Origin: Escherichia phage CLB_P2 | Sequence record: OL770107 | DNA length: 64,000 nt | Reading direction: 5' to 3' (one strand) | Shown: positions 17,073 to 64,000 of the stretch, piece by piece | How positions within the stretch are numbered: the first letter of the stretch is position 1 | How the letters are laid out: each line of letters opens with the position of its first letter | Notes under the pieces: generated by a model | Databases searched by the model: none | What the model was told of the DNA's origin: nothing | What the model saw: only the letters and a program-made list of their open reading frames with translations | Position numbers and translations under genes: made by a program

Positions 17073-17351
17073 ATGAAAACTTATCAAGAATTTAGTAAAT
17101 CTCAAAAAGTGGCTCCTATCAATGAAGCCAGTGTTATGAGTGAAGTTATAGCCCTAAACAAAGGCCGTGAAGGTAAACCGGTTATCGGTCTTAATGGTGA
17201 TGAACTTAAAGGTACTGTTTATCTGGGCGACGGTTACCATGCTAAAAAAGACGGTGGGAGCATTGTTATTTCCCCGGCTCAAGAATCTTCTGTAATGAAA
17301 ACCGTTTACATCGCCACCAAGCACTTTGATATTTTGAAAAAAGCACTTTAA
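17073..17351 (+). CDS. ipI: internal head protein, ipI-locus type
   Basis: Starts MKTYQEF (T4 internal-protein capsid-targeting leader); 92 aa; located between 57B and the tRNA cluster as ipI is in T4. Confidence 0.6.
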   Translation: MKTYQEFSKSQKVAPINEASVMSEVIALNKGREGKPVIGLNGDELKGTVYLGDGYHAKKDGGSIVISPAQESSVMKTVYIATKHFDILKKAL

Positions 17352-48650: not shown

Positions 48651-49208
48651 ATGACCGAAATTAAACTGACTAAAAATAACTATGTAAATAATAAGGAGCT
48701 TCTGAAAGCCATTACCCAGTGGAAAACAGAGCTCCGAGAAAATACCGATCCTAATAAAATAGTTCGTCAGAACGATGTTATCGGCTTGGCTATTATGCTC
48801 ATTGCTGAGGGCCTTTCTAAGCGTTTCAACTTCTCCGGGTATACCCAATCCTGGAAGCAAGAAATGATTGCTGATGGAATCGAAGCTTCTATTAAAGGTC
48901 TTCACAACTTCGACGAAACAAAATACGACAACCCACATGCATATATCACTATGGCTTGTTTTAATGCCTTTGTTCAGCGTATCAAGAAAGAACGTAAAGA
49001 AATGGCAAAGAAATACAGCTACTTCGTCCATAACGTTTATGACGCTAATGACGACGACATGGTAGGTATCGCAGATGAAACTTTTATCCAGGATATTTAC
49101 GACAAAATGACTCAGTATGAAACCTCTTTAGTTAAAGCGCCAGGGTCTGATAAGAGCGCCGAATCTAAAGTTGGTGAGCTGGATTTTTTATATGGAACTC
49201 AAGATTAA
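48651..49208 (+). CDS. 55: late-transcription sigma factor gp55
   Basis: 185 aa, same length as T4 gp55; position upstream of 47/46. Confidence 0.8.
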
Positions 49209-49935: not shown

Positions 49936-50027
49936 ATGAAAGACGAACATCCGGATTTTTAAGCTATGAATGACGAATACGAAAAAGTTTAAGAGGTTTT
50001 ATGAATGACGAATTCGACGGATTTTGA
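49936..50027 (+). repeat. three tandem roughly 30-bp units, each an 8-codon mini-ORF
   Basis: ATGAAAGACGAACAT..TAA, ATGAATGACGAATAC..TAA, ATGAATGACGAATTC..TGA at 49936, 49966, 50001. Confidence 0.5.
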
Positions 50028-50178
50028 TAAGATTAAATCTGACAAAAATGAGATGATACTTAAATTTGAAGCCGCTCGTATTAAAGCGGAAAAAGAAGGT
50101 ACTATTACTCATAAGAAAATCAAGTTCACGTCTAATCGCGAACCTCTGTATGGTGTATTAGTTGGTAAAGGAGCTTAG
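50005..50178 (+). CDS. small hypothetical protein (57 aa)
   Basis: ORF below track cutoff, ends in terminator hairpin. Confidence 0.3.
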   Translation: MTNSTDFDKIKSDKNEMILKFEAARIKAEKEGTITHKKIKFTSNREPLYGVLVGKGA

Positions 50179-50191
50179 GCTCCTTTTTTTG
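50168..50191 (+). terminator. rho-independent terminator
   Basis: Hairpin ggagc-ttag-gctcc followed by TTTTTTT. Confidence 0.65.
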
Positions 50192-50215
50192 CTTTATTCA
50201 TGGCGGAGTATAATA
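50190..50215 (+). promoter_or_regulatory. MotA-dependent middle promoter
   Basis: TGCTTTA, exactly 12-nt spacer, TATAAT. Confidence 0.55.
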
Positions 50216-50235
50216 GTCTAAACTGAGGAGAACAT

Positions 50236-50379
50236 ATGGAATTATTTTTAGGATATGTCGTGTTATTCATGGCATTCTACACATTCACAAGAGCTTGTTG
50301 GATAGGATTCTTTTCCACTCCTGACGGGTTCATTTCAATAATTTTATTTTGCACTGCGATAACGGCGCTTGGCTTATGA
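50236..50379 (+). CDS. small membrane protein (47 aa)
   Basis: Hydrophobic ORF with SD GAGGAG; stop overlaps gene 47 ATG (ATGA). Confidence 0.35.
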   Translation: MELFLGYVVLFMAFYTFTRACWIGFFSTPDGFISIILFCTAITALGL

Positions 50380-51398
50380 AAATATTAAACACAGGTGACT
50401 GGCACCTTGGAGTTAAGGCCGATGATGTATGGGTACAGAATATCCAACGTCAAGGTATCCAAGACGCTATCAATTATTCTAAAGCAAATGGCATTACTGT
50501 ATGGATTCAATACGGTGATATCTTTGACGTTCGTAAAGCAATTACCCATAAGTGTATGGAATTCGCTCGCGAAATCTCTGATTTGCTTAAAGCTAACGGC
50601 ATTACCATGTATACCGTTGTTGGTAATCATGATATGCACTACAAAAATACCTTGACTCCTAACGCTGCTTCTGAAGTTCTCGGCAAATACGACCATATCA
50701 AGGTTATTGAAAAACCTACTACGGTTAACTTTGATGGCACCGAAATTGATTTGATTCCATGGATGTGTGAAGAAAACACAACTGATATCATGGACCATAT
50801 CAAAAATACAACGGCAGATTTCTGTATTGGCCATTGGGAATTAAATGGTTTCTATTTCTATAAAGGAATGAAATCTCATGGTTTAGAACCTGATTTCCTT
50901 AAAAAGTATAAGCAAGTTTGGTCAGGCCACTTCCACACTATTTCTGATGCAGCAAACGTTAAGTACATTGGTACTCCATGGACCCTTACTGCAGGTGATG
51001 AGAACGACCCTCGTGGTTTCTGGATTTTCGATACCGAAACTCATAAAATGGATTTCATCATTAATGAAACCTGTTGGCATCGTAAGATTCATTATCCTAA
51101 CGCGACTATCGATTACAAAGATTTTACAAATATCGCAGTTCGTGTTATAGTCGATAAAATTGATGACGGCCTTACTAAGTTCGAATCAGAGCTTGAAAAG
51201 GTTGTTCACTCTTTACGTATTGTGTCTAAGGTAGATAATAGTGTTGATACCGATGATTCTGAAGAGGAAGACGAAGTTAAATCCCTCTTGGATATGATGT
51301 ATGATTATATCGATGCCCTGCCTGATGGCCACACTGAAGCCGATGTTAAGGCCCTCAAAACTATGGCTGCACAACTTTATAATGAGGTTACACGATGA
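50376..51398 (+). CDS. 47: recombination endonuclease subunit gp47 (Mre11-like)
   Basis: 340 aa; N-terminal MKILNTGDWHLG phosphoesterase motif; GNHD motif. Confidence 0.85.
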   Translation: MKILNTGDWHLGVKADDVWVQNIQRQGIQDAINYSKANGITVWIQYGDIFDVRKAITHKCMEFAREISDLLKANGITMYTVVGNHDMHYKNTLTPNAASEVLGKYDHIKVIEKPTTVNFDGTEIDLIPWMCEENTTDIMDHIKNTTADFCIGHWELNGFYFYKGMKSHGLEPDFLKKYKQVWSGHFHTISDAANVKYIGTPWTLTAGDENDPRGFWIFDTETHKMDFIINETCWHRKIHYPNATIDYKDFTNIAVRVIVDKIDDGLTKFESELEKVVHSLRIVSKVDNSVDTDDSEEEDEVKSLLDMMYDYIDALPDGHTEADVKALKTMAAQLYNEVTR

Positions 51399-57094: not shown

Positions 57095-57117
57095 AAGGGA
57101 CTTCGGTCCCTTTTTTG
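57095..57117 (+). terminator. rho-independent terminator
   Basis: Hairpin gggac-ttcg-gtccc followed by TTTTTT. Confidence 0.65.
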
Positions 57118-57174
57118 GAGTATAATTATTCATCAACAAACAAAAGACAATCACTCGTCTATAAAGGAAATGAA

Positions 57175-59886
57175 ATGCAAGAATTCTATTTGACAGTCGA
57201 ACAAATCGGTGATAATATTCTCGAACGTTACATCGATAAAAATGGTAACGAACGTAGTCGTGAAGTTCCTTACAAGCCTACAATGTTTATGCATGCTAAC
57301 CCAGAGCAAGCCGTAAAATATATTGACATCTACGGTAAGGGCTGTGTTAAGAAAGAATTCAATTCAATGCGCGATGCTTCTCAGTGGATGAAGCGCATGG
57401 ACGATATGGGTCTCGAAGCCCTTGGTATGGATGACTATAAATTAGCCTATTTGTCTGATACCTATCGTAAAGAAATCAAGTATGATTCTTCTAAGATTCG
57501 TATTGCTAACTTCGACATCGAGGTAACATCTCCTGATGGATTCCCTGAACCTGCCCAGGCTAAACATCCTATCGATGCCATTACTCACTACGACTCGATT
57601 GATGATAAATTCTATGTATTCGACCTTTTAGTTTCACCTTATGGTACGGTCGAAGAGTGGTCGATTAAAATCGCTGAGAAACTCCAAGACGAAGGTGGTG
57701 ACGAAGTTCCACAGGAAATCATTGACAAAATCGTTTATCTTCCGTTTAATTCTGAAGAAGAAATGATGCTTGAGTATCTTAATTTCTGGCAACAGAAAAC
57801 TCCTGTGATTTTGACTGGATGGAACGTTGAATCATTTGACGTGCCATACGTTTATAACCGTCTGAAAAATCTGTTTGGTGAGAACACTGCTAAGCGATTA
57901 AGCCCGCATCGTAAGACTCGTGTTAAAGTTATCGAGAACATGTACGGCGCTCGCGAAATTATTACACTGTTCGGTATCTCTGTTCTGGATTATATCGACC
58001 TTTATAAAAAATTCAGCTTTACCAACCAGCCTTCTTATTCTCTGGATTATGTTTCTGAATATGAATTGAAAGTAGGTAAGTTGAAATATGATGGCCCTAT
58101 CTCCAAGTTACGTGAGACGAACCACCAACGATATATTTCCTATAACATTATCGACGTATATCGTGTTGTGCAGATTGATATGAAACGCCAGTTCATTCTT
58201 CTTAGTCTGGACATGGGTTACTATGCCAAGATGCAGATTCAGTCGGTGTTCAGTCCAATTAAGACTTGGGACGCCATTATTTTTAATAGCCTTAAAGAAC
58301 AGGGTAAAGTTATTCCTCAGGCCAAATCGCATGCGGTTCAACCTTATCCGGGTGCTTTCGTTAAGGAACCTATTCCTAACGCGTACAAATATGTAATGAG
58401 TTTCGACCTTACATCTCTGTACCCGAGTATCATTCGACAAGTGAATATAAGCCCAGAGACCATCGCAGGCACATTCGCCAACGCACCGATACATGAATAT
58501 ATTGCCGGAACTGCTCCGCGTCCTAGCGACACCTACAGTTGCTCTCCTAACGGCATGATGTACTATAAAGACCGTGATGGTGTGATTCCTACAGAAATCA
58601 CGAAGGTGTTCTTACAACGTAAAGAACATAAAGGTTATATGCTTGCAGCTCAACGTAATGGTGAGTTAATTAAAGAAGCATTAGAAAATCCTAATCTGTC
58701 TGTTGATAGTCCATTGGATGTTGATTATCGTTTCGACTTCTCTGACGAAGTCAAAGCCCAGATTAAAAAATTGTCAGCATCTTCTTTAAAAGAAATGTTG
58801 TTCAAAGCCGAACGTACTGAAGTCGCAGGTATGACTGCTCAGATTAACCGTAAATTGCTTATCAACTCCCTTTATGGTGCACTTGGTAACGTATGGTTCC
58901 GTTACTATGACCTCAGGAACGCAACTGCAATAACATTGTTTGGTCAAATGGCCCTCCAATGGATTGAACGTAAGGTTAACGAATATCTGAATGGCGTATG
59001 TAAGACCGAAAACCAGAAGTTCGTGCTTTATGGTGATACTGACTCCATTTATGTTAAGGCTGATGCAATTATCAATAAAGTAGGCGAAGACAAATTCCGT
59101 GATACCAACCACTGGGTTGACTTCTTAGATAAATTTGCACGTGAACGTATGGAACCAGCTATTGATGCAGGCTTCCGTGAGATGTGTGAATACATGAACA
59201 ATAAACAGCACTTGATGTTCATGGACCGAGAAGCTATCGCTGGTCCTCCACTTGGTTCTAAAGGTCTTGGTGGATTCTGGACAGGCAAGAAACGTTATGC
59301 ACTGAACGTTTGGGACATGGAAGGTACTCGTTATGCCGAACCACACTTGAAAATCATGGGTCTCGAAACCCAGAAATCAAGTACACCTAAAGCGGTTCAG
59401 AAAGCTCTGAAAGAATGTATCCGTCGTATGCTTCAAGAAGGCGAGGCCTCTTTGCAAGAATATTTCAAACAGTTTAATAAGGAATTTAACGAACTAGACT
59501 ATGTAAGCATTGCTGCAGTATCCAGTGCTAACAACATCGAGAAATATAATGAAGGCGGTTTCCCTGGTTCTAAATGTCCGTACCACATCAAAGGTTGCTT
59601 AGCTTACATGCGTGCTTCTGCTGGTGATTTGACTATGCCTCGTATCGTTGATGGTGAAAAGGTATATGTACTACCACTTAAAGAAGGCAACCCGTTCGGT
59701 GAAGCTTGTATGGCATGGCCGTCAGGTATTGAACTTCCGATTCAGATTCGTGACCAAGTCCTCCGTTGGATGGACTACAACGTATTGTTCCAAAAGACCT
59801 TTATCAAACCTCTGACCGGTTTTACTGAGTCTGCTAAAATTGACTACGAGAAAAAAGCAACATTATTTGACATGTTCGACTTTTAA
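57175..59886 (+). CDS. 43: DNA polymerase gp43 (family B)
   Basis: 903 aa from MQEFY; exonuclease motifs (FDIE, YNIIDV), polymerase motifs SLYPSII, KILINSLYGALG, YGDTDS match T4 gp43. Confidence 0.9.
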   Translation: MQEFYLTVEQIGDNILERYIDKNGNERSREVPYKPTMFMHANPEQAVKYIDIYGKGCVKKEFNSMRDASQWMKRMDDMGLEALGMDDYKLAYLSDTYRKEIKYDSSKIRIANFDIEVTSPDGFPEPAQAKHPIDAITHYDSIDDKFYVFDLLVSPYGTVEEWSIKIAEKLQDEGGDEVPQEIIDKIVYLPFNSEEEMMLEYLNFWQQKTPVILTGWNVESFDVPYVYNRLKNLFGENTAKRLSPHRKTRVKVIENMYGAREIITLFGISVLDYIDLYKKFSFTNQPSYSLDYVSEYELKVGKLKYDGPISKLRETNHQRYISYNIIDVYRVVQIDMKRQFILLSLDMGYYAKMQIQSVFSPIKTWDAIIFNSLKEQGKVIPQAKSHAVQPYPGAFVKEPIPNAYKYVMSFDLTSLYPSIIRQVNISPETIAGTFANAPIHEYIAGTAPRPSDTYSCSPNGMMYYKDRDGVIPTEITKVFLQRKEHKGYMLAAQRNGELIKEALENPNLSVDSPLDVDYRFDFSDEVKAQIKKLSASSLKEMLFKAERTEVAGMTAQINRKLLINSLYGALGNVWFRYYDLRNATAITLFGQMALQWIERKVNEYLNGVCKTENQKFVLYGDTDSIYVKADAIINKVGEDKFRDTNHWVDFLDKFARERMEPAIDAGFREMCEYMNNKQHLMFMDREAIAGPPLGSKGLGGFWTGKKRYALNVWDMEGTRYAEPHLKIMGLETQKSSTPKAVQKALKECIRRMLQEGEASLQEYFKQFNKEFNELDYVSIAAVSSANNIEKYNEGGFPGSKCPYHIKGCLAYMRASAGDLTMPRIVDGEKVYVLPLKEGNPFGEACMAWPSGIELPIQIRDQVLRWMDYNVLFQKTFIKPLTGFTESAKIDYEKKATLFDMFDF

Positions 59887-59888
59887 GT

Positions 59889-59935
59889 GTTTACATACCA
59901 CATGGAATGTGGTAGTATCCTTCCTATCAACTACA
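59889..59935 (+). promoter_or_regulatory. early promoter / stem-loop cassette
   Basis: GTTTAC -35; inverted repeat ccacatgg/ccatgtgg; TAGTAT -10. Confidence 0.5.
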
Positions 59936-59948
59936 TGAGGAAATTATA

Positions 59949-60185
59949 ATGGAAGCTTTAATCGTTAGTGCTGGTGTTTTAGGATTCGGTTCTCTGGTTA
60001 TTATGTTCATTGGTTACTTTTTACCATGGATTCTGGCTCTTCTGCGAGGCACTCGTAGCAATGTCGGAATCTTCTTCCTTAATCTTCTGTTAGGATGGAC
60101 GATGATTGGTTGGGTAGTGGCTTTAATCTGGGCTATCGTCGCCGAACGTAAATCAAACGCACAAATCATTATCGTTAAACAATGA
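59949..60185 (+). CDS. membrane protein, Imm-like by position
   Basis: 78 aa with two transmembrane helices immediately downstream of gene 43 where T4 has imm.1/imm. Confidence 0.4.
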   Translation: MEALIVSAGVLGFGSLVIMFIGYFLPWILALLRGTRSNVGIFFLNLLLGWTMIGWVVALIWAIVAERKSNAQIIIVKQ

Positions 60186-60319
60186 AAATAATTATTTTAT
60201 TTCTTATAATGGCCGCCTTTACCATTTATTGGGCAGTGGCAATTCCACCAATGATTCCAACATTAATCATGGGATGGATTATTCTTATAGCACAAATTAA
60301 GTATAACTGTTTTAATTGA
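60182..60319 (+). CDS. small hydrophobic protein (45 aa)
   Basis: ATGA overlap with the upstream gene; almost entirely hydrophobic. Confidence 0.3.
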   Translation: MKIIILFLIMAAFTIYWAVAIPPMIPTLIMGWIILIAQIKYNCFN

Positions 60320-60326
60320 GGATATT

Positions 60327-60827
60327 ATGAAAAAGTTAATTATCGCAATGAGTATGCTCCTATCAGGTTGCGCGGTCCAATACGGTGATGCGGTTTCGGC
60401 TGATGAAGTTGGTAAAGCTCGTATTGCAGCTGAACAGAAACAATTCGACGGCGAGATGAAATTCCATGCCGGTTCTGGACTTGTGTATACCCGAGCTAAT
60501 AATCAATGTGGTAATAACTGTGCAAAATATGCTCAAAGGGAAATCGAATTCCAACGTGAACAAGAGTCTAAGCGTGAAGCGGTACTAGCCAAACACCAGG
60601 CAGAAATGAAGCGCCAAGATGATTTGTACAAAAAGCAGAAACTGTATGCTATGTGTGTAAACCATATCAATTTACAGATTTCCGTCCACGAGGCTCGTTA
60701 TTACGAAATGCTCGAAACCGAGAGCTTCGATAAGGCTCGTGATTATAAGAAACAAATCAACAAGCTTAAGACCAAAGTGCCTGCTGCAGTAGAACAGTGC
60801 ATGGAATACGGTAAAGATAAGATTTAA
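60327..60827 (+). CDS. lipoprotein
   Basis: Signal peptide with lipobox LLSGC; 166 aa. Confidence 0.5.
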   Translation: MKKLIIAMSMLLSGCAVQYGDAVSADEVGKARIAAEQKQFDGEMKFHAGSGLVYTRANNQCGNNCAKYAQREIEFQREQESKREAVLAKHQAEMKRQDDLYKKQKLYAMCVNHINLQISVHEARYYEMLETESFDKARDYKKQINKLKTKVPAAVEQCMEYGKDKI

Positions 60828-60887
60828 GCAATAGAAATTTATTAAAAATAGTGTATAATGTACCTACATTCACTTGAGGAACAGATA

Positions 60888-62561
60888 ATGAAAAAGGTTG
60901 TTATTTTAGGCGCAGGTCTTGGCTCACGGTTGTATCCAATTACTAACGAAATCCCGAAGGTATTGGTTAACTACAAACAACATACGGTATTAAAGCATTT
61001 GTATGATTTGTATAGTAACCAATCAGATGAAATTATTCTGGTTATCCACAGCAAATTTAACGACCTCGTTAAAGGCTATATTAAATCCATTAACATGATT
61101 ACTGGCGATAAGCCTAAATTCACTATTCGTAACGTTGATGTTGCTAATGGTTCGGCCCATGCTATCGATTGCATTGCCGAAGATATCATTGGCCATAATG
61201 TCTTGTTTAACTGGTGTGACATCATTCCTATCGGTCATAAAGTTGAATGGGGTAACGACTACTGTTATACCTATGGAACCGACTGTCGTTTTACATTTGA
61301 AGAACCATACTTACGTGAAATTGGTACCGGTGGTGGCGTAGTTGGTTTGTATCAGGTAGCCAATTGGACAGGTTTCGACCGTTCTAATTATGGTGAAGAC
61401 CTTGCTGATAACCTGGATTCAATGGTCTATTTGACTGAACGTAAACTGGACTTTGTAGTTGATGTCGGTGACAAATTGAAACTGGCTAAGGCCCATGAAG
61501 AATCTGAAATTAACCGTGAATTTAATAAATTAGAGTTCACCGAGAATCTGGCTATTAAAGTACCAACTAACGAATTAGGTAAAGAAATTCAATCTAAAGA
61601 AATCAATTGGTATAATTCTATTGATTCTGAATTTGTTCCTAGCATTGTGGACTTTTCTCCAGGCGAATTCATTAAAATGGAACGTATCTTTGGTCGTACC
61701 ATGGCAGATGCCTACCGGTTTATGTCCAAAGAAACTAAAGTCCTCATGGTTTATAAGGTCATTAGTGCATTACGTTCATTTGGTGGAACTATTGATAATC
61801 CGTCCGATGAACAATGGTATTCTGATGTTAAGAAAGAAGTATTGGACAAGGTCCTTATTCGTAATGCTTCTATTGCTGGATTGATTGAAGGCTTTGCTCC
61901 ACAAGGCATTACCCACGTTAACGATTTCAAAGTAGGCGACCCTGAAAAACTTCTCCGCCATGCACTAGAAATTCTGTCTGAACATAAAGAACCATACCAA
62001 CTTATTCATGGCGACCCGCACTACAGTAATATTATGCTGTCGGACGAAGGTGATATTAAAATCATCGACCCACGCGGTTATTTCGGTAATAGTTCTAAAG
62101 GCCCTGCGATTTATGATGAAGCTAAGGTGCTTTATTCTATCGATGGCTATGATAAATTTAACTCAGACCCTCTATGGGGTGGATTAACTCGTAACGGAAC
62201 TCGTGTATTCGTCGATATCGAAAAGGTTATGCCTTTAGACGATATCCCTATGTGCACATTTAAGCACAAGCTCTGGATTGCTGTTATTTGGATGGCGCTG
62301 GCAGGTTACTTTAAGAATAACCCTCTGAAAGCTCTGGGTGCTTATTATAATGGTTTGTACCAACTGAGTGTGCTGCTGAAGCGGCATCCTCGTAAGCGTA
62401 AGCTTATTACGGGTGAATTTGTCGATGAAGTTCGTGACCCTATTACGGCTCAAATTATTACTCGTTGTCCTGATAAGTGGGTTTTGCTTGACCAGGAAAC
62501 TGGTGTAAAATATAAACCTACAGGTTCTACTGAACTCCACAAACAATGGAAGAAAATTTAA
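60888..62561 (+). CDS. bifunctional sugar-phosphate nucleotidyltransferase / kinase-like protein
   Basis: N-terminal ILGAGLGSRLYPIT..PKVLV (LicC/RmlA/MurU-type nucleotidyltransferase signature); C-terminal HGDPHYSNIM ... IIDPRGY (APH/choline-kinase-like catalytic motifs). Confidence 0.6.
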   Translation: MKKVVILGAGLGSRLYPITNEIPKVLVNYKQHTVLKHLYDLYSNQSDEIILVIHSKFNDLVKGYIKSINMITGDKPKFTIRNVDVANGSAHAIDCIAEDIIGHNVLFNWCDIIPIGHKVEWGNDYCYTYGTDCRFTFEEPYLREIGTGGGVVGLYQVANWTGFDRSNYGEDLADNLDSMVYLTERKLDFVVDVGDKLKLAKAHEESEINREFNKLEFTENLAIKVPTNELGKEIQSKEINWYNSIDSEFVPSIVDFSPGEFIKMERIFGRTMADAYRFMSKETKVLMVYKVISALRSFGGTIDNPSDEQWYSDVKKEVLDKVLIRNASIAGLIEGFAPQGITHVNDFKVGDPEKLLRHALEILSEHKEPYQLIHGDPHYSNIMLSDEGDIKIIDPRGYFGNSSKGPAIYDEAKVLYSIDGYDKFNSDPLWGGLTRNGTRVFVDIEKVMPLDDIPMCTFKHKLWIAVIWMALAGYFKNNPLKALGAYYNGLYQLSVLLKRHPRKRKLITGEFVDEVRDPITAQIITRCPDKWVLLDQETGVKYKPTGSTELHKQWKKI

Positions 62562-62944
62562 TGTCGCATCGAGTAGAAAATAAGCCACATTTATGTTTTG
62601 ATATCGATAACACAATCACGATTTGGAACCATGACCGTGATTATGAGAACTTTAAACCGGACACCGAAATGGTGTCCATGATTAATAAGCTTTATGATGA
62701 AGGGTACGAGATTACATTGTTCACTGCCCGTGGCATGACTTCATGTGGCCCAGGTCGAATCTTGGTTGAAGTAGTTCCTGCATTGGTTAAGAATCTTGAA
62801 AAAATTGGATTGAAATATCACAATTTGCTTACACACAAGCCGAGTTATACTTTTATCATCGATGACCGAGCAATCCGTCCTGACCACTTTAAAGAATTGG
62901 TTCGTGAAGGAACTCTTGATAGTTATAAGGCCTATCATCCATGA
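62561..62944 (+). CDS. HAD-superfamily phosphatase-like protein
   Basis: FDIDNTIT (HAD motif I DxDxT); TAARG-like motif II; start overlaps upstream stop (TAATG). Confidence 0.5.
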   Translation: MSHRVENKPHLCFDIDNTITIWNHDRDYENFKPDTEMVSMINKLYDEGYEITLFTARGMTSCGPGRILVEVVPALVKNLEKIGLKYHNLLTHKPSYTFIIDDRAIRPDHFKELVREGTLDSYKAYHP

Positions 62945-63477
62945 ATCCAAAAATCATTGTTATAGACGGCCCGGATAATTCCGGGAAGTCCACTTTAATT
63001 AAAAATCTGTTATCCAATAAGAAATACCGCCTTATTGATTTTCCTAAAAAGATTAATGGCAAGTGTATTTCATTAGGAACTGATAACGATAAGGCTTTAG
63101 TTGAAACTCTGTATAAGTTTTTAGACCCTAATTTCGTTTATATCCTTGACCGTGGTTATCCAAGTAATATTGTTTACTCAGGATTCCTTCGTGGTGAAAT
63201 GGACCCTTATGTAGAACTGGAAGATTGGAAAGGGTTTAAATCTGAATTTAACGTTATCGAGGTTATTTTAACTCGTAATCCATTAGACGAAGACTTCGAA
63301 GATGACCTTATTAAATTAACCAAAGATGAGTTCAACCTAACTATCCAGCAATACGAAACATGTTTTGAAAACGTGTTTAAAATCTTAAACCATGACGGCC
63401 ATAATAATTTGCTTAATGTTGATATGGTAGAATTAAAACGTCTGAACGAATATATTGAAAATAAGGTGAATAAATGA
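62941..63477 (+). CDS. P-loop nucleotide kinase (thymidylate-kinase-like)
   Basis: IVIDGPDNSGKSTL Walker A and LDRGYPSNIVYSG (DRY-like motif). Confidence 0.5.
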   Translation: MNPKIIVIDGPDNSGKSTLIKNLLSNKKYRLIDFPKKINGKCISLGTDNDKALVETLYKFLDPNFVYILDRGYPSNIVYSGFLRGEMDPYVELEDWKGFKSEFNVIEVILTRNPLDEDFEDDLIKLTKDEFNLTIQQYETCFENVFKILNHDGHNNLLNVDMVELKRLNEYIENKVNK

Positions 63478-64000
63478 AACACATTACCGCTGTTAGTTTT
63501 GAAAACGCATTTAAACAAATGAACGAAGAAATCCTGGAAGCTCCACAGTTTGCAGTTGATTCTCGTATCGGACGTTGTTATGAAATTGGTTCTGCTTCAG
63601 TAGAAGTACTGGATGCCAGCACCTATAAATTCACCGACCCACGTATCAATCGTATCAGTTATGAATATGCCGAATCCTTTTGGAAATTTATGATTTCTGG
63701 TGGTACTGACGCTGCCGAAGCATTTAAGGAATACCCTAATGTTGCTAAGTTCATTGATAAGCCGAAAAGTGACGTATTGCCTGCAAACTTCAACACTTTC
63801 TATGGACCTCGAATTGTGGCCCAACTCCCAGCCCTACTTAAAGAACTTAAAGAAAAGGCTAACTCGCGAAGAGTTGTGTTCCAGATTCTCCAAGAACAAG
63901 ACCAAGCCCTCCTTGATTCTGACGAATCCTTAGAATATCCGTGCACCGATTCGGTAACATATTATATTCGTGACGGACGTTTGTATGCACATACCCATAT
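63474..64000 (+). CDS. 42: dCMP hydroxymethylase-like (thymidylate synthase fold), 3' truncated by window end
   Basis: Open frame from ATG 63474 to the window end, not in the ORF track; NSRRVV and EYPCTDSVTYYIRDG align with T4 gp42 DSRRGI and FMCTNTVQYLIRD as recalled. Confidence 0.55.
   Translation, partial: MKHITAVSFENAFKQMNEEILEAPQFAVDSRIGRCYEIGSASVEVLDASTYKFTDPRINRISYEYAESFWKFMISGGTDAAEAFKEYPNVAKFIDKPKSDVLPANFNTFYGPRIVAQLPALLKELKEKANSRRVVFQILQEQDQALLDSDESLEYPCTDSVTYYIRDGRLYAHTH

Follow-up and report, generated by a model that had tools for sequence, protein, structure and literature searches.

Positions 60327-64000 of a 64,000-nt stretch of DNA from Escherichia phage CLB_P2 (sequence record OL770107; the whole stretch is called the window below) carry genes for sugar activation next to a gene of the thymidylate synthase (TS) superfamily. 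We find that this region is very probably the front part of a Dhakavirus cytosine-arabinosylation operon, the enzymes of which would make both UDP-arabinofuranose (UDP-Araf) and 5-hydroxycytosine. Homology, folds, motifs, diagnostic residues, operon structure and absences of genes were observed here; activities, reaction order and product chemistry are taken from the literature on phages RB69, HY126 and DLP3. We further infer that the host supplies arabinose-5-phosphate, that the DNA is mono-arabinosylated and that a kinase of thymidylate kinase (TMK) type takes part.

The pathway itself is already known. That this module supplies UDP-arabinose in RB69 and its relatives was proposed by Thomas et al. 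(2018; PMC6024577), and a comparative study of 2021 tabulated the cluster genes (PMC8056088). Papers of 2025-2026 gave the enzymology and chemistry, with UDP-Araf as the donor; there the Dhakaviruses were named among the lineages with a syntenic cluster, an assignment inferred from synteny (PMC13326640). The premise of a previous sequence-only reading of this region, in which the sugar module stands beside a dCMP hydroxymethylase and serves 5-hydroxymethylcytosine (hmC), is superseded.

Over bases 59900-64000, the window matches Dhakavirus CLBP2 (OZ035781.1, a record without annotation) at 100% identity and phages JS98, JS10, dhaeg and dhabil at ∼98%; as a whole, it corresponds to the reverse complement of OZ035781.1 positions 101329-165328. 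Judged by sequence, the genome that hosts the cluster is that of a JS98-type (Dhakavirus) T-even phage. The region beyond the window end was read from the identical record OZ035781.1 (stretch L001), and genome-wide searches covered all 171,787 bp.

Four genes of the cluster lie on the + strand of the window. They code for an AfhE-like bifunctional fusion protein of 557 aa (60888-62561), a small AfhF-like HAD phosphatase of 127 aa (62561-62944), a 178-aa P-loop protein with the nucleoside monophosphate kinase fold, homologous to RB69 gp45 (62941-63477), and a TS-superfamily enzyme (63474-64000 in the window). The window end cuts the last of these after residue 175; in full length it has 232 aa (L001 15575-16273 of OZ035781.1). 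A 297-aa glycosyltransferase open reading frame (ORF), homologous to RB69 gp46:47, follows directly at L001 16270-17163, beyond the window. Start and stop codons overlap at all four junctions: the TAA stop of the fusion gene and the ATG of the phosphatase gene have one base in common (TAATG), the starts of the kinase and TS homologue genes each overlap the preceding stop (ATGA), and the transferase gene starts in an ATGA overlap as well. These overlaps across five genes therefore indicate one translationally coupled unit.

The ORFs of the sequence-only reading are all present where it had placed them on the + strand, and its domain calls (the NTP_transferase and APH fusion, the HAD protein, the P-loop kinase and the TS-superfamily gene) are all real. 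For each gene of the cluster, RB69 has a homologous gene between its gene 43 and uvsX; the JS98 annotation of 2007 noted these genes as RB69 orf052c-, 051c-, 045c-, 048c- and 047c-like. The proposal of a module supplying a nucleotide sugar (here UDP-arabinofuranose) for an RB69-type non-glucosyl cytosine hypermodification is supported.

The identity of the TS homologue carries the assignment of the base. The neighbouring gene had been taken for a ‘gp42-like’ dCMP hydroxymethylase, as in T4, and combined with free-sugar salvage to give arabinosyl-hmC. The likeness to gp42 is real at the superfamily level: phrog_160 holds both proteins, and the dCMP-specifying Asp (N177D in E. coli ThyA numbering) and the L143D/E replacement are common to both. 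Beyond that level it fails. Identity to T4 gp42 is 24.5% over 159 aa (E = 1e-7), and the gp42 structure 1B49 was matched at E = 1.5e-4, versus E = 2e-125 and 80% identity for PDB entries 9IQU, 9IQC and 9IR2. Identity to RB69 gp48 is likewise 80%, and 9IQU and gp48 are 98.7% identical to each other. No second gp42-like gene, and no TS homologue other than td, was found in the whole genome.

Residues were compared in a MAFFT alignment with E. coli ThyA (sequence identical to 1AOB), T4 gp42, RB69 gp48, 9IQU and the td protein of the phage itself. The CLBP2 enzyme has C157 at ThyA position C146, E154 at L143, D188 at N177 and N180 at D169; at position 169, Asp is retained in T4 gp42 as well as in td. 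ThyA Trp80, an active-site residue, is replaced by Ala and Gly173 by Val in the CLBP2 enzyme, RB69 and 9IQU alike, which fits the published change of cofactor from folate to flavin. Asn at the ThyA Asp169 position was proposed as diagnostic of hydroxylases (PMC13326640). The signature of a 5-hydroxy-dCMP synthase (Asn at position 169, Cys146, N177D) is thus present, and that of a folate-dependent gp42-type hydroxymethylase is not, with Asn instead of Asp169 and Ala instead of W80.

RB69 gp48 binds flavin and forms 5-hydroxy-dCMP from dCMP, the oxygen coming from O2 (Lee et al., NAR 2026, PMC13326640), and in RB69 and DLP3 DNA arabinose is ether-linked to 5-hydroxycytosine (PMC13326640). The original RB69 report gave arabinosyl-hmC (PMC6024577), the example used in the sequence-only reading; that assignment has itself been revised to ether-linked 5-hydroxycytosine by nuclear magnetic resonance, mass spectrometry and 18O2 labelling (PMC13326640, PMC13390438). 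Given 80% identity to the 9IQU/gp48 type together with D169N, the expected base is therefore 5-hydroxycytosine, not hmC. A T4-like hydroxymethyl-dCMP enzyme coupled to free-sugar salvage and yielding arabinosyl-hmC is very unlikely, even though the kinase and nucleotidyltransferase folds do match LicA/LicC and MurU; salvage of a free sugar would need no HAD phosphatase. Public names for the TS homologue are misleading: ‘thymidylate synthase’, ‘deoxycytidylate 5-hydroxymethyltransferase’ and ‘dCMP hydroxymethylase’.

The fusion protein has a PF00483 NTP_transferase domain at its N terminus (residues 3-100, 33.9 bits, cut-off 21.2), with the GxGxRL signature GLGSRL at residue 10, and a PF01636 APH domain in its C-terminal part (residues 346-417, 26 bits, cut-off 23.2). 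Residues ∼1-205 are assigned to a putative sugar-1-phosphate uridylyltransferase half and residues ∼206-557 to a putative sugar-phosphate kinase half of APH/choline-kinase fold. Homology to RB69 gp53 and gp52 extends over the full length, with 44% and 41% identity, respectively; the separation of gp53 and gp52, in truth a single gene, is due to a sequencing error (PMC6024577). A structural model of the fusion was built on 63 aligned homologues (mean predicted local distance difference test score, pLDDT, 93.1). The model confirms both folds, the nucleotidyltransferase and the APH-type kinase, and the likeness to LicA/LicC and MurU suggested from the sequence was recovered on it.

All 63 homologues share the residues G10, R14, K24, D192, D195 and K198, which bind nucleotide and sugar phosphate, as well as the catalytic loop and metal ligand of the kinase (H374-G375-D376...N381, D394). 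In a phmmer search against PDB the fusion had weak N-terminal matches only (LicC, 1e-3), so no AfhE structure is deposited there. By domains, homology and model, the AfhE-type bifunctional architecture of a sugar-phosphate kinase joined to a UDP-sugar pyrophosphorylase is present, as is the pairing of an APH/choline-kinase-fold kinase with a minimal nucleotidyltransferase that characterizes LicA/LicC and AmgK/MurU.

Three metagenomic proteins of 922-946 aa (P0067, P0081 and P0097) combine HAD, SIS and NTP_transferase domains with the same kinase in a single chain; their SIS domain belongs to the arabinose-5-phosphate isomerase family. These fusions give an independent ‘Rosetta stone’ clue in favour of the proposed pathway. 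All three are AT-rich and Asn-rich. One four-domain fusion (L010 8001-10775) adjoins GT11/GT2/GT25 and Glyco_trans_1_2 genes, and looks like a complete line from ribulose-5-phosphate to NDP-arabinose in a glycan locus of a cell or a giant virus. In the Shewanella phage Thanatos the fusion homologue, 43% identical to that of the window, is essential for propagation. Public names for the fusion include the misleading ‘GlmU’ and ‘mannose-1-phosphate guanyltransferase’; records of BASEL phages label the homologue a ‘putative enzyme involved in UDP-arabinose biosynthesis’.

The HAD protein matched PDB entry 9IQW with 63% identity (E = 3.6e-54) and 1XPJ with E = 9e-12. It is 62% identical to RB69 gp51, and 9IQW and gp51 share 99.2% identity. 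From the adjacent PDB codes and the near-identity to RB69, 9IQU and 9IQW are presumed to be the HY126 enzymes. The motifs DIDNT, TAR and K...DD are kept; by homology and motifs, a HAD phosphatase of the Mg-dependent AfhF type is present. The public names ‘phosphoheptose isomerase’ and ‘capsule biosynthesis protein’ given to it are misleading.

In phage HY126, AfhE phosphorylates arabinose-5-phosphate at C1, and AfhF, a Mg-dependent phosphatase, turns arabinose-1,5-bisphosphate into arabinose-1-phosphate before uridylylation (He et al. 2026, Nat Chem Biol, as summarized in PMC13326640). The idea that a kinase and a nucleotidyltransferase here form a minimal free-sugar salvage route does not agree with this: in that summary, the substrate of the HY126 kinase is arabinose-5-phosphate and the HAD step lies between the two (PMC13326640).

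The bacterial heptose pathway has the same logic of steps. A kinase makes the 1,7-bisphosphate, the HAD phosphatase GmhB acts next, and the nucleotidyltransferase HddC follows. This pathway is the closest mechanistic analogue and fits better than two-step salvage of free substrates.

The sequence-only reading had noted that the interval between genes 47 and 55 holds no α-glucosyltransferase gene, and this was confirmed. The order there is gp55 (48651-49205), a-gt.5, a-gt.2 (to 50166), 47.1 (50242-50376) and gp47 (50376-51395). By tblastn with T4 landmark proteins, the slot of T4 a-gt and mobB at the a-gt.2/47.1 junction (49936-50376, + strand) is empty: only 76 bp are left, and the JS98 annotation has the same layout. 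Neither of the canonical T4 genes occurs elsewhere, since tblastn with a-gt and b-gt against the whole 171,787-bp genome gave nothing significant (best E = 0.07 and 4.9). Petrov et al. (2010) described JS98 and RB69 as having a gene 42 homologue and no glucosyltransferase (PMC2993671).

A candidate replacement, the 297-aa transferase, was found directly downstream of the TS homologue and just outside the window. It shows 70/65% identity to RB69 gp47/gp46 and belongs to phrog_3891; a syntenic homologue of the DNA arabinosyltransferase Aat1 is thus present. No Pfam, NCBIfam or PDB sequence match was obtained for it, and its putative function is read from RB69 gp46:47 homology and the published fold analysis. 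A hydrophobic 43-codon ORF (MLSPLLLFIGLLLFSFGALLLLVWLEKREVRKIVDKAINRGIK), unannotated in JS98, overlaps the end of the transferase gene at L001 ∼17157-17288, before uvsX.

The P-loop protein has the Walker A motif GPDNSGKS and matched phrog_761 (‘thymidylate kinase’) with E = 7e-40; its identity to RB69 gp45 (‘nucleotide kinase’) is 38%. The kinase was found in 343 phage records, and its counts per taxon equal those of the fusion. Two segments are conserved in the family: GPDNxGK[ST] and LDRxxxSNxVY, the latter of which we take to resemble the DRYxxSxxAY motif of TMK. Scores against Pfam Thymidylate_kin (PF02223; 15.7 bits, cut-off 27) and TIGR00041 (18.5 bits, cut-off 83) stay under the cut-offs, with matches confined to the P-loop. 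A profile of seven homologues matched in PDB YorR (E = 7e-4) and thymidylate kinases (∼0.01-0.02), mostly in the P-loop; RecA concatemers, the top matches of this profile, were set aside as a P-loop repeat artefact. The support that these comparisons lend to the label ‘thymidylate kinase’ is weak.

The kinase had been counted as part of the sugar-supply module. More probably it is an enzyme of the nucleotide branch. RB69 gp45 and DLP3 gp78 have TMK-like folds and were called ‘nucleotide kinase’ without an assay (PMC13326640). In Rhizobium phage RL38J1, which uses hexoses, the homologous kinase adjoins the synthase and the first transferase (PMC13326640, Table 1); a separate enzyme, the gp1-type dNMP kinase, phosphorylates 5-hydroxy-dCMP (Lee et al., PMC13326640). 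Across four differing cluster layouts (CLBP2, RB69, DLP3 and RL38J1) the kinase stays with the synthase and the first transferase. This is consistent with a tentative scheme to which we give a small chance: the first arabinosylation would take place on the mononucleotide, with Aat1 acting on 5-hydroxy-dCMP, and the TMK-like kinase would then phosphorylate arabinosyl-5-hydroxy-dCMP, a bulky substrate that the general gp1-type dNMP kinase may be unable to handle. Also in keeping with this scheme, isolated transferases were reported to be inactive on DNA containing 5-hydroxycytosine, and a first step at the level of the nucleotide could not be told apart from one at the level of DNA (PMC13326640).

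Put together, the operon would work through two branches. In the sugar branch, D-arabinose-5-phosphate, presumably delivered by host KdsD/GutQ as the phage has no isomerase gene, would be phosphorylated at C1 by the C-terminal kinase domain of the fusion; the small HAD phosphatase would strip the 5-phosphate to leave arabinofuranose-1-phosphate, which the N-terminal nucleotidyltransferase domain would join with UTP to give UDP-arabinofuranose. In the base branch, the TS homologue would hydroxylate dCMP to 5-hydroxy-dCMP with flavin and O2 rather than folate; nucleotide kinases (the T4 gp1-type dNMP kinase, with the TMK-like kinase possibly contributing) would raise it to the triphosphate, and the phage polymerase would build 5-hydroxy-dCTP in instead of C. 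The single Aat1 homologue would then move arabinose onto the 5-hydroxyl, giving mono-arabinosyl-5-hydroxycytosine DNA predicted to resist restriction and CRISPR nucleases.

Several points weigh against this reading. In RB69 and DLP3 the assignment of arabinose is anchored by an isomerase (RB69 gp55, DLP3 gp83). RB69 gp55, the arabinose-5-phosphate isomerase, had no tblastn match below E = 4 in the whole CLBP2 genome, and the gene is missing from the whole lineage that carries the fusion subtype of the window (Dhakavirus, Klebsiella and Proteus phages). The fusion (∼42%) and the kinase (38%) stand much further from their RB69 counterparts than adjacent genes do (62-90%). The literature that could be searched yielded no chemical analysis of DNA from any Dhakavirus. 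Table 1 of PMC13326640 also gives an alternative order, with dephosphorylation first and then phosphorylation of free arabinose. Finally, residues N180 and D188 lie 5-13 residues past the window end, and these and the glycosyltransferase were read from the identical public record.

Some of these points would also suit the same architecture working with another pentose: in the isomerase-less lineage (Dhakavirus, Marfavirus-type Klebsiella phages and some Proteus phages), ribose-5-phosphate, for example, could be activated and placed on 5-hydroxycytosine. The absence of a phage isomerase and of published chemistry for Dhakavirus DNA leaves room for this, and so does the fusion, ∼42% identical to the arabinose-validated Mosigvirus type against 62-80% for the phosphatase, synthase and transferase. 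The isomerase-less state does track the diverged fusion clade: members of that clade, among them Klebsiella and Proteus phages at 72-80%, are 72-100% identical to the window fusion, versus ∼42% for the isomerase-carrying Mosigviruses. Against this stand Serratia phage 92A1 and Thanatos, whose fusions have 47% and 43% identity to that of the window, respectively: both are as distant as RB69, and both are reported to be arabinosylated. In addition, the transferase is 65-70% identical to RB69 gp46:47, the active-site residues of the fusion are invariant in 63/63 homologues, and Dhakaviruses were grouped with the arabinosylation clusters (PMC13326640). A different pentose is unlikely, and arabinose is the favoured sugar.

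E. coli makes arabinose-5-phosphate constitutively, via KdsD and GutQ, for the synthesis of 3-deoxy-D-manno-octulosonic acid (Kdo). Supply of arabinose-5-phosphate by the host is therefore the simplest inference, and a phage isomerase would be dispensable. In the phage collection the isomerase is found in 276 records versus 367 for the fusion, and the interval between the polymerase gene and uvsX of JS98 has no isomerase annotation; the isomerase probably does not define the cluster but is accessory to it.

RB69 gp50, gp49 and the second arabinosyltransferase gp3 have no homologue in the CLBP2 genome either. At the site of gp3 in RB69, the gap between rIIA.1 and gene 39 is 584 bp here (CLBP2 genome 80728-81312) and holds only a ∼105-aa ORF without similarity to glycosyltransferases. 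Thanatos has one transferase and mono-arabinosylated DNA. Because the CLBP2 cluster also has a single syntenic transferase, we predict that Dhakavirus DNA would be mono-arabinosylated, fed by host KdsD/GutQ.

A role outside DNA was also weighed, namely that the module alters a host surface glycan (capsule or lipopolysaccharide). The HAD protein matches TIGR01689 (EcbF/BcbF capsule phosphatase) with E = 5e-15, its public names point to capsule and heptose metabolism, the membrane genes imm and imm.1 adjoin the cluster, and the bacterial/metagenomic four-domain fusion is placed among glycan glycosyltransferases. The TIGR01689 score, however, is 55 bits, far under the 162-bit cut-off. The genes are translationally coupled to those of a dCMP hydroxylase and a DNA arabinosyltransferase homologue, and the cluster co-occurs with hydroxylase and transferase genes in >340 T4-like phages. 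For homologues, the product was shown experimentally to end up on DNA (PMC13326640). We regard a surface-glycan function as extremely unlikely and DNA as the target.

The same five homologues as in the CLBP2 cluster occur in RB69/HY126 (the Afh system; RB69 gp45-gp55 and gp3) and in Acinetobacter phage DLP3 (gp76-83). As in RB69, the CLBP2 cluster is located between the DNA polymerase gene and uvsX on the same strand. Unlike RB69, CLBP2 lacks gp55 (isomerase), gp50 (U32-peptidase-like), gp49 and gp3 anywhere in the genome, has its kinase gene between those of the phosphatase and the synthase, and keeps imm and imm.1 upstream; its fusion and kinase are only ∼40% identical to the RB69 proteins, and its DNA is predicted to be mono-arabinosylated rather than di- or tri-arabinosylated. 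The polymerase and uvsX have 84% and 91% identity to RB69, respectively.

The T4 glucosyl-hmC system occupies the same genomic slot (43 - imm - 42 - b-gt - uvsX). In both systems dCMP is modified by an enzyme of the TS superfamily, the hydroxyl gained in this way receives a sugar from a glycosyltransferase, and the dCTPase gp56 gene is located downstream. They differ in the base, which in CLBP2 would be 5-hydroxycytosine (flavin/O2, D169N) and in T4 is hydroxymethylcytosine (folate), and in the donor, which would be a phage-made UDP-pentose in CLBP2 and is host UDP-glucose in T4; a-gt and b-gt are absent in CLBP2. Compared with the heptose pathway (HldA/HddA, GmhB, HddC/HldC), the CLBP2 substrate would be a pentose and the product would be used on DNA; the CLBP2 kinase has the APH/choline-kinase fold rather than a ribokinase or GHMP fold, and kinase and transferase are fused. 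AmgK/MurU and LicA/LicC are two-step systems that take unphosphorylated substrates and have no phosphatase, with separate proteins in bacteria, whereas the CLBP2-type route would take a 5-phosphate, with an intercalated HAD step and fused proteins.

Upstream of the operon, all on the + strand, lie the genes for DNA polymerase (57115-59886), the 78-aa superinfection immunity protein Imm (59949-60185; PF14373, E = 5e-18), a 45-aa two-helix membrane protein (60182-60319; phrog_3610, E = 1e-21) and a 166-aa lipoprotein of the Imm.1 family (60327-60827), whose signal peptide and lipobox LLSGC were read from the sequence. Those between the polymerase and the operon are context only. The 45-aa ORF, situated between imm and the lipoprotein gene, was absent from the list of genes in the sequence-only reading. 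It is RB69 orf054c-like (56% identity to gp54), and its start overlaps the imm stop (ATGA).

The lipoprotein is likewise outside the pathway. Among PHROG profiles, phrog_1754 takes in both this protein (E = 2e-52) and T4 Imm.1 (E = 6e-43); BLASTP gave no pairwise match between the two, and their kinship is visible only via the common profile. Of the ‘four extra genes’ counted between imm and the gp42-like gene relative to T4, three are indeed extra, and the fourth, the lipoprotein gene, belongs to the imm.1 family, which T4 also has (its order is 43 - imm.1 - imm - 42). T4 imm.1 (L004 4637-5014) is misleadingly labelled ‘iduronate sulfatase’ in RefSeq.

A sigma-70-like promoter match (TAGAAA-16-TATAAT, 10/12 consensus matches) is located on the + strand at 60832-60859, 29 bp upstream of the fusion gene, and is a possible, weak candidate for an early promoter of the operon. 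The consensus scan of the region found as many such sites as expected from shuffled sequence; a terminator scan of the region found none.

Phage DNA that carries arabinosyl-5-hydroxycytosine is protected against type II restriction, against the Brig1 glycosylase and against type I CRISPR-Cas, and the modification determines which type IV systems can attack; this bears on the choice and engineering of therapeutic coliphages. Such protection is already established for RB69-, HY126-, Bas46/47- and DLP3-type phages. Beyond this, the contribution of the window is limited to a clear instance of the cluster in its minimal form of five genes, which has a single transferase and lacks an isomerase; the public annotations of these genes are misleading. 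The prediction offered is that JS98-type phages carry mono-arabinosyl-5-hydroxycytosine and depend on host KdsD/GutQ. If this is true, the isomerase-less cluster would tie phage DNA modification to the Kdo-precursor (arabinose-5-phosphate) pool of the host.

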